Source: Dehalococcoidia bacterium
GTDB taxonomy: Bacteria; Chloroflexota; Dehalococcoidia; Lucifugimonadales; UBA3495
NCBI GenBank assembly: GCA_965216065.1
Contig: CBDCFB010000001.1
Coordinates: 1,554,548 to 1,618,547 of the forward strand
Direction: 5' to 3'
DNA: 64,000 nucleotides
Made by a program: the position numbers and the translations under genes. The notes beneath the pieces were generated by a model. That model saw nothing but the letters and a program-made list of their open reading frames with translations, had not been told where the DNA came from and did no database searches. Below are positions 1 to 33,249 of this stretch, piece after piece; within the stretch, counting starts at the first letter, position 1, and every line of letters begins with the position of its first letter.

Positions 1-703
1 GGTCACTGTCTCCGCCCCGCACCAGCAGCACCGGCCCGGGGATAAGTCGGGCCAGGTTCCAGGACACCTCCGGGTCGGGACGGCGGCGATCGCTGCGGAC
101 CGCCGGGTCCATCTTCCAAGTGAAGCCGCCTCCGGGGAGGGCCTTGACCGCATGACTGGCAGCGCTCAGCTGCTGGGCGTCGCTCATCGCGCTGAAGCCG
201 ACCCGATTCTCTCGGTGCCAGGCCATTACCTCTTCGATAGTCGCAAAGATGGTGACCGCGTCCCGGGAACTGGAGGCGATGCGGCTGCCTCCTCTCGAGT
301 CGACTTCCGGGCCGATATCGTTCAGGACGGTGCGCTCCACCCGCTCGGGGTATGTGCCGGCGTAGGTCAGGGAAATGCGGCCTCCCATGGAGGTGCCCAC
401 CAGCGAGAAGCGCTCGAATCCGAGGGCCTGCCGCAGCCCTTCCAGGTCGGCAACGTAGGCGTCGTTGGAGTAGTCGCGGTCGGCGGCCCAATCGCTGTCG
501 CCGCGGCCTCGGACGTCAATGGATATGACGTGGTAGCGGGGCAGAAAGTGGGGTGCCAGGTTGTCGAAGGCGTGGGCGTTGCCGGTAAGACCATGCACCA
601 TGACGACCGGCGGCGCCCCGGCTTCGCCCCATTCCTGGTAATGCAGGTCAAGGTTCCCAATTCTTACAATACGGTCCACTGCTTTGGCGGTACCTGTGGT
701 CAT
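1..703 (-). CDS. Alpha/beta fold hydrolase (partial, runs off window start)
   Basis: Not in ORF track (open-ended). ATG at 703 with GGAGG RBS; translates MTTGTAKAVDRIVRIGNLDLHYQEWG..VMVHGLTG..DVRGRGDS..LVGTSMGG (HG oxyanion and GxSxG motifs). Confidence 0.85.
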   Translation of the reverse strand, partial: MTTGTAKAVDRIVRIGNLDLHYQEWGEAGAPPVVMVHGLTGNAHAFDNLAPHFLPRYHVISIDVRGRGDSDWAADRDYSNDAYVADLEGLRQALGFERFSLVGTSMGGRISLTYAGTYPERVERTVLNDIGPEVDSRGGSRIASSSRDAVTIFATIEEVMAWHRENRVGFSAMSDAQQLSAASHAVKALPGGGFTWKMDPAVRSDRRRPDPEVSWNLARLIPGPVLLVRGGDSD

Positions 704-5573: not shown

Positions 5574-5679
5574 CAGGTCCACCAAGACTTCCCGGGTTGA
5601 CGGTACCGCCGTGGCGGCGCCAACCCGGTACATAAAGCGCCATACAGGTACATAACCTGGTTCTCAGAGGAATTGCGGC

Positions 5680-7410
5680 ATGAAATTGCAGATAATGTCT
5701 CCTGCGGCCGACCGGGTGGACTTCAAGGTACCTCCCGCCCCCAGGCTTACCACCCTGGAAGGCAAGACAATCGGTCTGTACAACAACATGACCGGCGGGG
5801 CCGACGTTGCCGTCGACCGGTTCGCAGAGCAGCTGCAGCGCCGGTATCCCAGCGTCAGGTTCCAGCGTTACGGCGGAGACCTTCGCGAAGGCCGCCCTGC
5901 ACTCAGCCGGGGCGTCCACATCGACGACGAGGAAGCCGCGCGCATTGCCACCGAGGTCGACGCCATGGTGGGAGCGACAGCGCATTGAGGGGGCTGCACG
6001 TCGTGGCTTAGCCACGACATGGTCGCCATGGAAAAGGCCGGCATACCCGCCGTGGCCATTGCGGCCCAGAGCTTTGCCCGGTCCTGGCAGGCCTGCGTGG
6101 ACGGGTGGGGACAGCCCACCACCGCTTTTGTCGTCATTCCCCACGCCACCACCGGGCAGCAACCCGACTTCATCCGCAACATGGTGGACGGGCAGATTGA
6201 CGCCATAATCCAGGGCCTCACCACCTTCCCGGCATCCCGCGGGCCGGTCACCTCCAGGAAGACCAGGAAGACCGGCGGCGCCACCGAGATCTTCACAGTG
6301 GAGATGGACTCATCTCCGGATGGGCTGGACGCGGTGAACCGGTTCTTGGCCGATCGGGACTGGAGCGACGGCATTCCGGTCATTCCACCCACTCCCGAGC
6401 TGGTGGAGAGGATGCTGGTCGGCACCAACAGGAGCCCGCAGGACGTGCTGATGGTGATGGAGCCGGGCTTTGGAGTCGCCACGGTTGAGAAGGTCGCGAT
6501 CAACGCCGTGATGGCCGGCTGCCGACCCGAGCAGTTCCCGGTCCTGCTGGCCGCCATTGACTGCCTGGCCCAGCCGGAGCTGAATCACCGGGATATGCAG
6601 GTGTCGGGCCACACCGAGGCCCCGCTGATCCTGGTCAACGGCCCCATCGCCCAGCGTGCAGGAATCAACTGCGGGACGTCGGCCATGGGTCCCGGCGTGG
6701 TCAACAGCGCCAACACCTCCATCGGACGGGCGCTGCGACTGTGCCTCATCAACATCGGCTACTGCAAGGCCGGGACCGGCGACCCCAACTTCATCGGCCT
6801 GCCCACCAAGTTCGGCATGTGCATTGCCGAGAACGAAGAGCTCAGCCCGTGGCAGCCCTACCACGTCGACCAGGGTTTCCAGCCCCACGAAAGCGCCGTA
6901 ACGCTGGTGACGGTTACCGGCCCCGGCGACATCCTGGACTCGGGTTCAAGGAACCACAAAGACACGCTGAACAACATCGCGTCGATGATGTCCTACCCCG
7001 GCGCCGGCAGCGGCGGGTGGATAAGGGGCTGGGATTCGGCGCAGGTGGGGCATACCAGCCAGCGGGTGTCCTATCCCGGGCCTTACCATCCCGTCGTGCT
7101 CAGTCCATCCCGCGCAGTCATTCTGGCCGAAGCCGGGTACAGCAAGCGCGACGCCCAGGAATGGCTGCACGAACACTGCCGGATGCCGTTGCAGAAGGCC
7201 ATCCGAAACCGCGACGTACCTAGGGACGAGAACGGCAAATGGCTGCATCATCCCGAACAGCAAACACTGGAGAACGACCCGGAAGCCACCATTCCGATGC
7301 TGGAAAGCCCGGAGCAGTACCTGCTGTTCGTGACCGGCGGCACCACCCACTACGCCCACTTCTTCTACGGCACCTACGGCATCGCCACCCGCCCGGTGGA
7401 AGAGATTTAG
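5680..7410 (+). CDS. UGSC-family selenoprotein (Sec at TGA 5986-5988), fused to C-terminal DG(L/I)PVIPPT domain
   Basis: ORFs 5680..5988 and 6019..7410 are in the same frame; the junction reads VGATAH-TGA-GGCTSWLSHDMVAMEKAGIP (UxxC); hairpin follows the UGA. Confidence 0.85.
5997..6021 (+). promoter_or_regulatory. Candidate bacterial SECIS element
   Basis: Perfect stem GTCGTGGC-TTA-GCCACGAC (6000-6018) starting 11 nt after the in-frame TGA; extendable by CA/TG. Confidence 0.6.
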
Positions 7411-24660: not shown

Positions 24661-25962
24661 CTAGTCATCCCCGGCGGCGGGGGCCGGGCCGCCCAGCGGC
24701 TGTGGCGTTTTGCCGCCGATGGAGAGGACCAGCAGCGCGGAGGCTATCAGCAGCCCTATGTTGGACCAGATAGCCCAGTCGTAGGTGCCGCGAATGTCGA
24801 ACAGTGTGCCACCGAGGGTAGCTCCCAAACCCGATCCAATGGGCATGACGGCAAACATGGTGCCGTATATCTTGCCCATGTGGGCTGTGCCGAAGTTGTC
24901 GGCGGTATAGGCGGCGGTGATTCCGACCACGGCGTTCCAGGACAGCCCAACCAGCAACACCCCCGCTACCAGGGCAACTATCCCAAGCGGTGGGACCCCA
25001 AGGAAAGAAATGCCCATAGACAGCAAAACAACGACGAACCCCAGCGCCCTCAACTGATAGGACACAGCCAGCCATGGGCGGCGGCCGTATTTGTCGGAGA
25101 AATGCCCCAGCCAGAGCGCGCCGATGATGGACGTGGCTCCAATGACGGCGAACATCAGGGCTGCCGTCCTGGGGGTATACCCGAGGTCCTGCACGTAGGT
25201 GACGAAGTGAGCATTCACGAAGCTCATCGAGTACCCTCAAACGAAGTACCCGAATGCCAGCTTCTGGAACATCGAGGTTTTGATGGCCTCGGTAAAGGAA
25301 AAGGTCACGTCCCCGCCCCGGCGCCGTCCCGCTCCCGCAGACAGGTTGTCGCCGGCACCGTAAGGGCTGAGGCCTTTGTCCTCGGGGCGGTTGCGAATGA
25401 ATATGATCCCGATTGGGAGGATCACCAGCAGGAGCAGTATCCCAAGGAAGAGATAGGCCTCCCGCCACGAAAACAAATCAAGGATTTCAGTCGTTGCGGG
25501 CACCAGGATCATGGCGCCGAAAGAGCCCGCCCCTGCTACCAACCCAAGGGTCAGACCACGTTTAACTACAAACCACTGGCTGACGATCTTTGTCAGGATC
25601 GGGCCGGTGCCCAGGGTCACACCCAAGCTCATAACGGCGAACAACGCATACAGCTGCCAAAGCGTTTCGATTCTCGGTATCAGGGCCAGCATCCACCCCA
25701 TTATCAGGACGCCCGACAGGGCAACCCACTTGGGGCTGTAGCGGTCGGCGAGGTATCCAGCAAAGGGGCGCAGCAGGCCCGAAATCACGTAGGTGACGCC
25801 GAAGGCTGCCGAAAGGGTGCCGCGGCTCCACTCAAATTCGTCGGTCATGGGCTTCAGGAATACGCCGAAGGAGAACTGCCCACCGGCGACGCCGAAGACG
25901 ACTAGCGAACAGCCGATGGCCACCCACCATCCGTAGAATATATTCCTGCCAAAGAGCCTCAT
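24661..25962 (-). CDS. MFS transporter (OFA/YcxA-like) with in-frame UGA at 25237-25239; candidate selenoprotein or nonsense pseudogene
   Basis: ORFs 25237..26076 and 24661..25227 are in the same frame: FQKLAFGYFV-TGA-GYSMSFVNAHFV; together they form a full 433-aa MFS starting MRLFGRNIFYGWW. Confidence 0.85.
25203..25229 (-). promoter_or_regulatory. Candidate SECIS hairpin in MFS gene
   Basis: mRNA CGA-UGAGC-UUCGUGAAU-GCUCA-CU-UCG; core stem begins 10 nt after the UGA. Confidence 0.4.
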
Positions 25963-26143
25963 ACACGTCTCCGGCCCTTGCGTCTCACGGTACGCGCATA
26001 CTAATCCCGCTCTGGGGCTTTGTCCACGAACAGGGGAGGATTGGCTTGCCCGCTTTCGGCCAACGGAACCACCCAACGGGAGTCCGATGCGCCAATGATT
26101 GAGGCAGTGTAAAATCAGGTCTACGCTAATGGAGGTCTACCGG

Positions 26144-29246: not shown

Positions 29247-30687
29247 CAGGCTGCTGAACAAGGGTCTTCACGTTTGGAATCGACGGGTCAAGTCGTTGGA
29301 GCTTGGGTCCTGTTGGAGGAAATTGTGCCGTTCACACGGGACTTTCAGCCCCTTCGGCTTCGCGGACCGGCCCTCTTGGGGGCACCGGGCATAGCCAGCC
29401 CCAGCTAGCCCATTGTCAGGTCATGCCATCCGGGCTTCCGGAGTTGTCGGCGCCTGCCCCAGCAGCTTGGACATCCGAACCAGGTTGTAGGCCGTGGCCA
29501 CCAAGTTCCCCGCCAGACCAGTCCGGTCCAATCCCCGGTAACGGGTCCGCCGGAATCCGCCCACGGTCTTCATCCACCCGAAGATCATCCACCCGAAGAT
29601 CTCCTCAACCCGTTTCCGTATCCGCTGGCTGACCGCGTACCCAGGATGCCGGGTGGTCCGGCCATCAATGGCGCTGGATCGCCCCATTTTGTTCTGCGCG
29701 ATGTGCGGCGTAACCCCGCGCCGGCGCAGGTCCGCCACGCAGTCCCGGGTGTCGTAGCCTTTGTCTCCGCCCAGCGTTCCGGGATGAAAGCCCCGTCCCC
29801 GGGCTTGCTCCAACAGTTCTGGCACTATATCCCGCTCCGCCGTACTCGTCGCTCGGGTGGTCTGAAAGTCCACCAGCATTCCATACCGGTTTTCCATCAG
29901 GGCGTGGGCCATGAACATCAACCTGGCCTCCTTGCCTTTACGCCTTTACCCTTGCGCAGCAACCGGGCCTCCGGGTCCATGGTGCTCTGATGGGTGGCAT
30001 TGCTGCGCCGTTCCCCATGGAAGTCAACCGAGGGGAAGTCAACCGAGGGGAAGTCAACCGAGGGGTTGCCCGGGTCAGCATCGGTTGTTCTGGGCGGGTC
30101 GCCGTCCTTGGGTTTGAAGCTCTTCAGGCTGGCTGCCGCCTCAATCAGGGTCCTATCCACCGTGAAGTGCCCGGAAGTGCTCGTCCGACAGCAGGCCCTG
30201 CCGGTCCGCCTCCAGCACCACCTCGCCGAACAATGCCTGGCCCACTCCGTGCCTGAGCAGCCGCTCCCGGTTCTTGGTGAAGGTGGTGGCATCGAAGCTG
30301 GCCTCAATCAGGTTCATATCCAGAAACCACCGGAAGAGGAGGTTGTAGTCCAACTGTTCGCAGAATGTCCGTTCACTGCACACCGAGTACAGGGCAATCA
30401 GCAATGACGACTTCAGCAGCCGCTCCGACGGGATCGAAGGATGGCCCACATTGGCGTACATCCGGTCCAGGTCCGGGGACAGCGCCTTCAGGGCTTGGTC
30501 CGCCAGCCTCTTGATAACACGCAGGGGATGGTCCGATGGCACTCGCGTTTCCAGGTCAATGAATGCCAGCATAGTCGCCTGTGAATCATATCTCCCGCGC
30601 ATCGGCTCAACCTCCGTCCAGGGTGGCGTCCTATTTTAACCAGTTCCCTCTGGACTGCCGGGCCACGCCGGGTTTTTCATCAGCCTG
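29247..30687 (-). mobile_element. IS5-family element with frameshifted transposase (30602 to 29421)
   Basis: TIRs CAGGCTGCTGAACAA / TTTTTCATCAGCCTG; motifs RVP.DHPLR, DKGYD, RKRVEEIFGW.K; several frameshifts. Confidence 0.88.
30019..30063. repeat. 15-bp tandem triplication inside IS5 transposase
   Basis: GGAAGTCAACCGAGG x3 (PSVDF x3). Confidence 0.9.
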
Positions 30688-32078: not shown

Positions 32079-32900
32079 GGTTCTGTTGCAACAGCAAGGA
32101 GTCGCCGCCGTTCAGCAGGAACCGGGTGGCATAGGTGTGCCGCATCAGGTGCGGATGCAGTCTGGGAATCCCGGCGGTCTTGGAAAGCCGCTCCGTGAGG
32201 GACCGCAGGGCCTCGGCGCCCATGGGGAGACCGTCGATGCACAGGAAGAAGGTTTCTGCTCGCTGCTCCTGATTTTCAAGACGGTAGTGTTCCAAGTAGT
32301 TGAACAGTGCCTCTTGGCGGTTGGCGCCGAAATCGACGATTCGCTCCTTGTCTCCTTTCCCAGCACCTTGACGTACCGGCTGCCGAAGTGGACATCCTTG
32401 TATTTCAGGGTGACGACCTCAGAGAGCCTGAGGCCGGTGTCCAGCATGAGGCTGAATATGGCGGTGTTTCTTGCCCCCAAGGTCGAGTTGGGGTTGATGC
32501 TGGAGAAAATCTTCTCGACCTCATCGTTGGTCAGGATGTCTATCTCCTTCTCCCTTGGCTTCGGCGGCTTCACCTTCTCGAGCCGGTGGCACTCGGTGTA
32601 ATCTTCCTCGTACAGCCAGTTAAAGAATGACCGCAGCGCCCTGACCCGGTTGTTGACTGTGTGGCTGGAGGCAGGGCTCCGCAGACCAGGTGTGGTCTTG
32701 AGACAAAGGATAAGGAGCCTCACCTCCTCCTTTCCGATATCATCCAGGCAGGCGGAGATGTCCTCTTCTGCCAGCCAGGTCTGGAATAGTCCCAAGGCCT
32801 GCTGGTACCACTCCACCGTCTTCTCTGAGAAGCCCTCTGACGCCTCGTAGACCATGAACTTCTCAACTAAACTGCTGAGTTCCAGCTTTCCCCGCTTCAT
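32076..32900 (-). pseudogene. Tyrosine recombinase/integrase, frameshifted (~32358) and truncated by IS630
   Basis: LDTGLRLSE, V.GKG.KER, HLMRHTYAT, LLQQNL then IS630 end where GH..Y is expected. Confidence 0.85.
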
Positions 32901-33044
32901 TTTCCTGCTCCGCCGTCTGGTTCCTGCTCTCATCATGACTACTTGCCTCAATTCGAGTAATGGACTGTCAGGCAAGCAAGATGGTCGTGAACCGGAACTC
33001 GTTCGTGACGGCAGGCAGCGTGTCGGATGTGTCCTTGGGCAACG

Positions 33045-33068
33045 AAAAAGCCGCCCGGTCGGGCGGCT
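33045..33068 (-). terminator. Intrinsic terminator downstream of tRNA-Arg
   Basis: Minus strand AGCCGCCC-GACC-GGGCGGCT-TTTT. Confidence 0.7.
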
Positions 33069-33127
33069 CTCTGCCCTCGGCTTCACCCCTGAAAAGGGGT
33101 GAAGCCAAGCTGAGTCATAGCTAATTG

Positions 33128-33203
33128 TGGCGTCCCAGGCAGGATTCGAACCCGCGACCCGCTGCTTAGAAGGCAGCCGCTCTATCCCCTGAGCTACTGG
33201 GAC
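33128..33203 (-). tRNA. tRNA-Arg (anticodon UCU)
   Basis: Full cloverleaf GTCCCAG-TA-GCTC..GAGC-G-GCTGC-CTTCTAA-GCAGC..GCGGG-TTCGAAT-CCTGC-CTGGGAC-GCCA, 76 nt. Confidence 0.97.
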
Positions 33204-33249
33204 TCCTTTCATGGGCGATGGCCAGGGGACCGTCTCGCCCTCTGCATTT

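Follow-up and report, generated by a model that had tools for sequence, protein, structure and literature searches.

Is the transporter gene at positions 24661 to 25962 of this stretch of Dehalococcoidia DNA broken by its internal TGA, or is that codon read as selenocysteine (Sec)? The stretch, which we call the window, is the whole 64,000 nucleotides analysed (contig CBDCFB010000001.1, assembly GCA_965216065.1), and the gene lies on its minus strand. Translation table 11 divides the frame into two open reading frames, 25237..26076 and 24661..25227. A sequence-only reading of the window had taken these two halves to be one 433-residue frame of a major facilitator superfamily (MFS) transporter with a single TGA, and we found frame and context as it described them: the only internal stop is the TGA at 25239..25237, codon 242, in the translated context KLAFGYFV-U-GYSMSFVNAHF. 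Our comparisons, in which each computational check proposed there came out in favour of its reading, make it very probable that the gene is an intact MFS transporter of the oxalate/formate antiporter (OFA) / bacterial-monocarboxylate-transporter branch, with UGA codon 242 decoded as Sec. On this evidence it would represent a selenoprotein family new to the MFS that has been retained in six families of one Dehalococcoidia order.

24661..25962, minus strand: predicted Sec-containing MFS transporter coding sequence, 433 sense codons, ATG 25962..25960, TAG 24663..24661, Sec as residue 242
25237..25239, minus strand: UGA codon 242, predicted to be read as Sec (TGA in 70/70 orthologues, Cys in homologues, Sec machinery in the genome)

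The start ATG was adopted from the earlier reading; orthologue alignments begin at residues 1-7, and a further in-frame start candidate, a TTG, lies upstream at 26076. The read-through protein matches the Pfam family MFS_1 (PF07690) with an E-value of 1.4e-44 (152.8 bits, curated cut-off 33.4), and its predicted structure (see below) has the twelve-helix fold of the superfamily. When it was searched against NCBIfam, no model reached its cut-off: the best match, to the SfMCT-type L-lactate transporter NF049980, scored 154.7 bits against an equivalog cut-off of 320, followed by the oxalate/formate antiporter family TIGR00890 (103.8 bits, cut-off 374.85), while the OxlT model TIGR04259 gave 95.4 bits for a cut-off of 335.

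The TGA is not peculiar to this genome. A first sample comprised 59 genomes: its own, 34 congeners and 24 that represent other families of the order. Orthologues with a single TGA, at 59-90% identity, occur in 31 of the congeners and in one of the 24. In the remaining three congeners the gene is lost rather than changed to Cys: G009 and G032 have only paralogue-level matches, and G015 has a decayed fragment. That gene piece (G015:C2:1489905-1490387, L055) covers residues 1-161 and contains three TGA and one TAA. The match in G010 spans one TAA, which falls within the last four aligned codons and is the gene's own stop. An order-wide sample of 401 genomes, own genome included, evenly drawn and searched at E<=1e-90, yielded matches in 42, every one of them with exactly one TGA and reaching down to 43-44% identity; these carriers belong to six families and to 17 of 145 genera. 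A phylum-wide sample of the same size, again including the own genome and searched at E<=1e-60, brought no additional TGA form: the homologues that it returned, from 10 genomes and 35-39% identical, were all free of stops (we base nothing on G285, an unpublished genome among the 10).

The 70 distinct orthologues (six families of one order, 43-90% identity) all have TGA in the same column, within the motif G-[YF]-F-[VI]-U-G-[YF]; tabulating TGA against TGY, a check proposed with the sequence-only reading, gave no TGY at this column in any of the 70. Contigs from three metagenome runs of three studies likewise show no differing letter at the codon, with one contig extending more than 31 letters past it in either direction and the others ending inside a conserved block around it. 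Over 25189-25276 the contigs of these runs show a 3- to 50-fold rise in depth and tend to break, mostly within 25202-25254, as would be expected where several co-occurring relatives have this stretch in identical form. A TGA confined to a single assembly would have spoken for a Cys-to-stop pseudogene, as the earlier reading itself had pointed out; the same TGA recurs in 70 independent assemblies and in the metagenome contigs.

What do homologues without the TGA carry in its place? A search of 1.84 billion representatives gave 20,416 matches at E<=0.001, of which the best 150 were inspected. Among these 150 the closest full-length homologues share only 41-33% identity with the read-through protein. 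Of the 40 best full-length ones 34 have Cys in the UGA column, as do 72 of 137 when all are counted, in the motif F-[FY]-[VA]-C-G-[FY]-[TS], which bears out the Cys motif that the sequence-only reading gave for this helix. Three representatives, P0123, P0160 and P0195 (241-248 residues, 43-61% identity), stop precisely at column 241. The gene's closest paralogue within the same genome also has Cys at this position, as do 21 of 21 orthologues of that paralogue. In a FastTree phylogeny of the 70 Sec forms and 71 full-length representatives, the 70 Sec rows make up one clade (Shimodaira-Hasegawa-like support 99) whose sister is the Cys form P0122, a topology that would fit a single Cys-to-Sec replacement at the base of the clade, after which the gene was kept or lost and did not revert. 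Two features expected of a bacterial selenoprotein gene, a conserved in-frame UGA and homologues with an aligned Cys, are therefore both found here.

Public databases present the gene differently. In a collection of 5.8 billion clusters, all of the 120 top-listed proteins are N-terminal halves of 239-312 residues (62-100% identity), under the names 'MFS transporter', 'sugar phosphate permease' or 'hypothetical'. A transporter that is widespread in Dehalococcoidia, marine ones included, thus appears to be systematically mis-annotated as half proteins, and since public calls are halved at the TGA, selenoproteome counts for Dehalococcoidia would be too low.

The part of the gene beyond the UGA is under the same purifying selection as the part before it. 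We used a codon alignment of 33 orthologues, within which no other stop occurs. The ratio of nonsynonymous to synonymous substitution rates (dN/dS), another comparison suggested by the sequence-only reading, is equally low on both sides of the UGA, with pairwise medians of 0.132 for codons 1-241 and 0.119 for codons 243-433 at dS of 1.1-1.4; selection downstream of the UGA is what a selenoprotein gene should show. Moreover, synonymous sites are frozen next to the UGA. The nine-codon window 241-249 has the lowest normalised synonymous entropy of the gene (0.148, compared with a mean of 0.672 and a window standard deviation of 0.093), and the next four lowest windows overlap it. Codons GTT241, TAC244, TTC248, GTG249 and GCT251 are invariant in all 33 sequences and AGC247 in 32, while four-fold sites outside the UGA region vary freely. 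The control comprised 21 orthologues of the nearest Cys paralogue, all from the same genus and 66-84% identical, in which the Cys codon is TGC in 17 and TGT in 4; here the equivalent window scores 0.755, above the gene mean of 0.652, with no dip. Because the dip is present in the Sec gene and not in its Cys paralogue, the synonymous constraint belongs to the UGA form.

This constrained region contains a hairpin that may serve as a bacterial selenocysteine insertion sequence (SECIS).

25189..25245, minus strand: highly conserved 57-nt block around the UGA, with 27 invariant columns among 70 sequences (alignment A2)
25208..25226, minus strand: putative bacterial SECIS core hairpin, UGAGC / UUCGUGAAU / GCUCA, with standard pairs and frozen synonymous sites
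25203..25229, minus strand: the same hairpin with a possible lower stem CGA/UCG, which needs a 2-nt bulge and has partial support
25228..25236, minus strand: codons 243-245 (Gly-Tyr-Ser) preceding ATG246, with variation at third positions

The UGA lies inside UGAGGG and is followed by a 10-nt spacer, GGGUACUCGA, after which come the arm UGAGC (25226..25222), the loop UUCGUGAAU (25221..25213) and the arm GCUCA (25212..25208). The core consists of the pairs U-A, G-C, A-U, G-C and C-G, topped by two upper U-A pairs, with a bulged U and a CGUG apical loop. The position and size of this hairpin and the G-U of its apical loop fit bacterial SECIS elements. Pairing was scored over the 64 distinct rows of the 70-sequence alignment: each of the five core pairs is standard in 61-64 rows, and 91.6% of cells pair, compared with 34-51% once the 3' partner is displaced by 1-3 columns. 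Pair 22-36 is changed on both sides in four rows, from A-U to G-C, U-A or U-G; in L077 and L078 the change to G-C arises through AGC to GGC together with GCT to GCC, and L081 and L090, in which TCG has replaced the Ser codon of the other rows, retain the helix in a shifted register. Thus the core UGAGC/GCUCA, its start 10 nt after the UGA and its conservation stand as the sequence-only reading had them. The extension by CGA/UCG (25229..25227 with 25205..25203) proposed there stands only in part: its C-G pair forms in 56 of 64 rows and its A-U pair in 63, and the middle pair is G-C in 21, A-U in 10, G-U in 9 and unpaired in 24. Taken together, the stem-loop is conserved beyond what the protein needs, with stability that is not significant by itself and thin covariation, and the significance that we ascribe to it on comparative grounds comes from conservation and not from stability. 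As a short, near-invariant hairpin topped by CGUG, it could be a useful example of a minimal bacterial SECIS for the phylum. A small alternative hairpin that includes the UGA, UUGAG/CUCRA, is also predicted.

The same block raises the question of whether the gene might be naturally split, with translation stopping at the UGA and restarting at ATG246 by means of the GAGG in UGAGGG, and the two six-helix halves assembling into a transporter. Split MFS halves, for example those of LacY, can complement each other; ATG246 is present in all 70 sequences with the GAGG 7 nt upstream of it, and gene callers place C-terminal halves at M246 (P0130, P0152). We nevertheless consider a split very improbable. 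In the 70 sequences, codon 243 is a Gly codon whose four GGN forms number 47, 15, 4 and 4, codon 244 a Tyr codon (TAY, 66 and 4), and codon 245 either Ser or Thr (TCN in 55, ACN in 15); since codons 243-245 vary only at third positions or between Ser and Thr, they appear to be translated, which argues that the UGA is read through. In addition, the cut would fall in the middle of transmembrane helix 7 (residues 230-259) and delete U-G-Y-S, unsplit homologues have Cys followed by G-[FY]-[ST] at this very site, and a restart has no need of a conserved hairpin covering the 3' side of the start codon.

Decoding of the UGA as Sec calls for the Sec machinery, for which the sequence-only reading had advised a search, and the 3.9-Mb genome contains all of it. 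A tRNA-Sec is found at 66.3 bits (ARAGORN assigns tRNA-SeC, anticodon tca), and SelB (339.8 bits; C1:1085293-1087149), SelA (536.2 bits) and SelD (380.8 bits) each score above their cut-offs, so that selA, selB, selC and selD, the set expected alongside a bacterial selenoprotein gene, are complete. SelA is also above its cut-off in all five tested carriers from four other families. The SelD gene contains one TGA. It encodes a selenoprotein itself (...SHCAG-U-AAKLS...; G000:C2:657046-657966, minus strand, locus L018), with a hairpin GGACCUG-GUA-CAGGUCC, GUA being the loop, about 20 nt after its UGA. A second match to the tRNA-Sec model (G000:C1:1375145-1375230, plus strand, L002), scoring 47.4 bits against a gathering score of 47, probably represents a conventional tRNA with a long arm. 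No member of the genome's FdhA family contains a TGA, and hence that family offers no second SECIS for comparison. We also considered an alternative genetic code and rejected it: TGA is a common ordinary stop here, terminating 839 of 2003 stop-to-stop frames of at least 350 codons, and a genome-wide reassignment of TGA is therefore excluded. In this genome, SelB with Sec-tRNA would, following established knowledge of bacterial Sec insertion, bind the CGUG-topped mRNA hairpin while the ribosome stands on the UGA, and Sec would be inserted; when selenium is short, translation would stop at the UGA and leave a useless half protein.

A second candidate selenoprotein gene in the window offers a comparison. 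At 5656-7407 on the plus strand, with a TGA at 5986-5988, lies a UGSC-family gene (NF041046, 84 bits, below the cut-off of 125) whose motif reads U-G-G-C. It was found through NCBIfam, as a search of the window for the exact U-G-S-C motif gave none; a blind list of TGA-bridged frames across the window is too noisy in GC-rich DNA. Its N-terminal UGSC domain continues in frame into some 400 C-terminal residues, which have no NCBIfam match. In this gene UGA-GGG is followed, about 10 nt downstream, by an 8-bp hairpin, GUCGUGGC-UUA-GCCACGAC, and so the likeness in UGA-GGG context and spacing between the two genes, which had been noticed from the letters alone, is confirmed within one organism, and presumably the same SelB serves both. 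On the other hand, the UGSC-family protein is soluble and belongs to a known selenoprotein family, and its hairpin, with 8 bp and the loop UUA, is longer and more stable than that of the MFS gene (-23 kcal/mol for a 63-nt stretch).

These observations also bear on the possibility that the UGA is read through without selenium, by a near-cognate Cys-, Trp- or Arg-tRNA, with the hairpin acting as a general read-through stimulator. The case for selenium in the protein is a comparative one, and the hairpin is weaker than many textbook SECIS elements; yet against such read-through speak the full Sec machinery of the genome and the SelA of the five carriers in other families, the likeness of the hairpin to bacterial SECIS elements in position, size and apical G-U, the Cys column of the homologues, which is the classic Sec/Cys pairing, and the UGA-GGG context and spacing shared with the UGSC-family gene, and we give it only a slight chance of being right. 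A Cys-to-stop pseudogene or an assembly error, for which one could cite the frame broken under table 11, the 120 of 120 top-listed public gene calls that stop at the TGA and the degraded G015 fragment with its four stops, is as good as excluded, given the same TGA in 70 independent assemblies at 43-90% identity, the dN/dS of 0.119 downstream at dS above 1 with no further stop or frameshift, and the agreement at the codon of contigs from three studies, the bridging contig among them.

Several observations weigh against decoding of codon 242 as Sec, or against the strength with which the hairpin can be said to support it. Three of the 70 sequences depart from the common form of the hairpin (L080 loses a pair, L081 and L090 are those with the shifted register). 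The hairpin is short and weak, with folding free energies of -5 to -8 kcal/mol, and shuffled sequences fold just as well (z 0.12 and 0.73). As it is nearly invariant, covariation amounts to the one pair in four rows plus the partly supported lower pair, and an Rfam search gave only a chance-level match on the opposite strand (18.9 against 49.4 bits). The peptide SMSFVNAH is invariant, so that conservation of the nucleotides is partly protein constraint. The sequencing runs listed include no RNA run containing the stretch, and the case for selenium and for translation of the C-terminal half is made by comparing sequences and not directly. As regards function, the gene neighbourhood is not conserved outside the genus (see more below).

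If codon 242 is decoded as Sec, what might the residue do in a transporter? An AlphaFold2 model built with a 134-row alignment, which replaced a single-sequence model with a predicted local distance difference test score (pLDDT) of 47.6, has a pLDDT of 92, a predicted template modelling score (pTM) of 0.90 and twelve transmembrane (TM) helices; in this model TM7 comprises residues 230-251 plus 253-259, with residue 242 near its middle. Foldseek returned 478 PDB matches at E<=0.001, and all 47 rows listed are MFS transporters, the best being SfMCT (E 4.8e-15), with OxlT at a TM-score of 0.79/0.87. SfMCT, the L-lactate/H+ symporter of Syntrophobacter fumaroxidans and a homologue of SLC16 (6G9X/6HCL), is also the best sequence match among solved structures (E 2e-20), at only about 22% identity. 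In the account of the SfMCT structures (PMC6573034), TM7 belongs to the helices that surround the central cavity, H250 at the periplasmic end of TM7 and D257 make up the proton site, and R280 and N276 of TM8 bind the carboxylate. The alignment to 6g9x places a His and an Asp of the Dehalococcoidia protein at this proton site:

25186..25209, minus strand: His252 (25209..25207) and Asp259 (25188..25186) of TM7, aligned with SfMCT H250 and D257

H252 is conserved in 70 of 70 sequences and D259 in 69, and by analogy with SfMCT the pair may have a proton-site role. U242 aligns with SfMCT G240, which adjoins C239. At the same time, SfMCT has no selenium and its substrate-binding residues are not shared: the position of R280 is A282 (A in 46, T in 14, S in 6 and G in 3 of 70) and that of N276 is S278 (A in 52, S in 16 and G in 2), so that the carboxylate-binding TM8 Arg/Asn of the SfMCT type is absent. 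OxlT (8HPK/8HPJ) has the same fold, but the family scores are far below cut-offs, and its cationic pair is missing as well, for the positions of R272 and K355, which we take to bind oxalate, are A282 and M373, the latter in 70 of 70.

To our knowledge, selenoproteins are nearly all soluble redox enzymes. A lone Sec in the middle of a cavity helix of an MFS carrier, invariably present in 70 genomes from six families, would point to another job for selenium, for example binding or proton coupling. The Sec clade lacks a conserved second Cys (the only other one, C18, is present in 43 of 70), which makes a redox switch less likely and weakens the redox gating that the sequence-only reading had suggested. 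In the model Sec242 would lie about half-way through TM7, ten residues to the cytoplasmic side of His252/Asp259. Our best guess, drawn from the model and from the analogy with SfMCT, is a non-redox role in the translocation pathway, where the selenol or selenolate would act directly as an ionisable or soft-ligand group for a proton or for the substrate. The pKa of a selenolate is about 5 and that of Cys about 8.5. More specifically, and more doubtfully, Sec242 could be an ionisable coupling site, a buried selenolate below His252/Asp259 that carries a proton or a cationic or thiophilic substrate. Were this so, the MFS would gain its first case of selenium used in transport coupling, and such a role would explain why Sec has been retained across the order without reversion to Cys.

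The sequence-only reading knew of no characterised example of Sec in a secondary transporter. For the MFS this stands, as the full-text literature searched contained no paper on a Sec-containing MFS transporter (supplementary tables, which lay outside that search, may list the family), but predicted Sec transporters of other superfamilies have been published. A 2026 review, which calls its own selenoprotein table the most comprehensive inventory (PMC13188914), lists among Sec transporters MerT-like proteins, an E1-E2 cation ATPase, YeeE/YedE, SaoX/SaoB/SaoP and SO_0444 Cu/Zn efflux proteins, and in its main text the terms 'MFS', 'major facilitator' and 'PF07690' do not occur. A term search for 'MFS' likewise found none in the texts of BSepDB, deep-Sep, Haft and the Actinomarina preprint; the BSepDB paper counts 46-49 selenoproteins in Dehalococcoidia, a class thus already recognised as rich in them. 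As summarised in that review's transporter entries, the listed proteins resemble the Sec-MFS transporter in that Cys of a membrane protein is replaced by Sec, as predicted from comparative genomics only. They differ in belonging to other superfamilies, in being mostly concerned with metals or metalloids and in having, in several cases, CxU or UxC pairs, whereas the MFS protein has a lone Sec and no metal-related context. SaoP, a predicted ATP-binding cassette (ABC) permease, is similar in placing Sec in a membrane translocation path, in being truncated at the UGA in most database entries and in having a few or more distant relatives with Cys (10.1101/2022.07.06.499078). SaoP is unlike it in serving a primary ABC importer, in forming a homodimer in which two Sec come together, and in lying in a conserved organometallic-chemistry locus of anaerobes; the Sec-MFS protein is a single-chain secondary transporter with one Sec, no partner Cys and no conserved locus.

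In the window, three tandem genes for DctP-type binding proteins flank the gene on one side and a divergent gene for an M24/creatinase-like hydrolase on the other, after which come genes for a luciferase-like monooxygenase and an alpha/beta hydrolase. The hydrolase adjoins the transporter in 25 of 32 other loci with flanks, all but one of them from the same genus, and within the genus the DctP-type genes are on the transporter's other side. Neither neighbour was found in any of six loci from other families, whose neighbours also differ from one another; since the neighbours vary between families, the context gives no substrate, and synteny was rejected as a clue to it. In one of the ten loci of family f14 (G710, L111 7978-11076, plus strand), lutA-, lutB- and lutC-like lactate-utilisation genes follow the Sec-MFS gene on the same strand. 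The three DctP-type genes (tripartite ATP-independent periplasmic transporter family, PF03480; 20071-24545, plus strand) are paralogues with about 65% identity, and there are no membrane subunits of such a transporter between them and the MFS gene. A fragment of a DDE transposase (29421-29921, minus strand) and a phage-type integrase (32145-33212, minus strand) lie a few kb from the locus, which suggests that the neighbourhood is rearranged or mobile.

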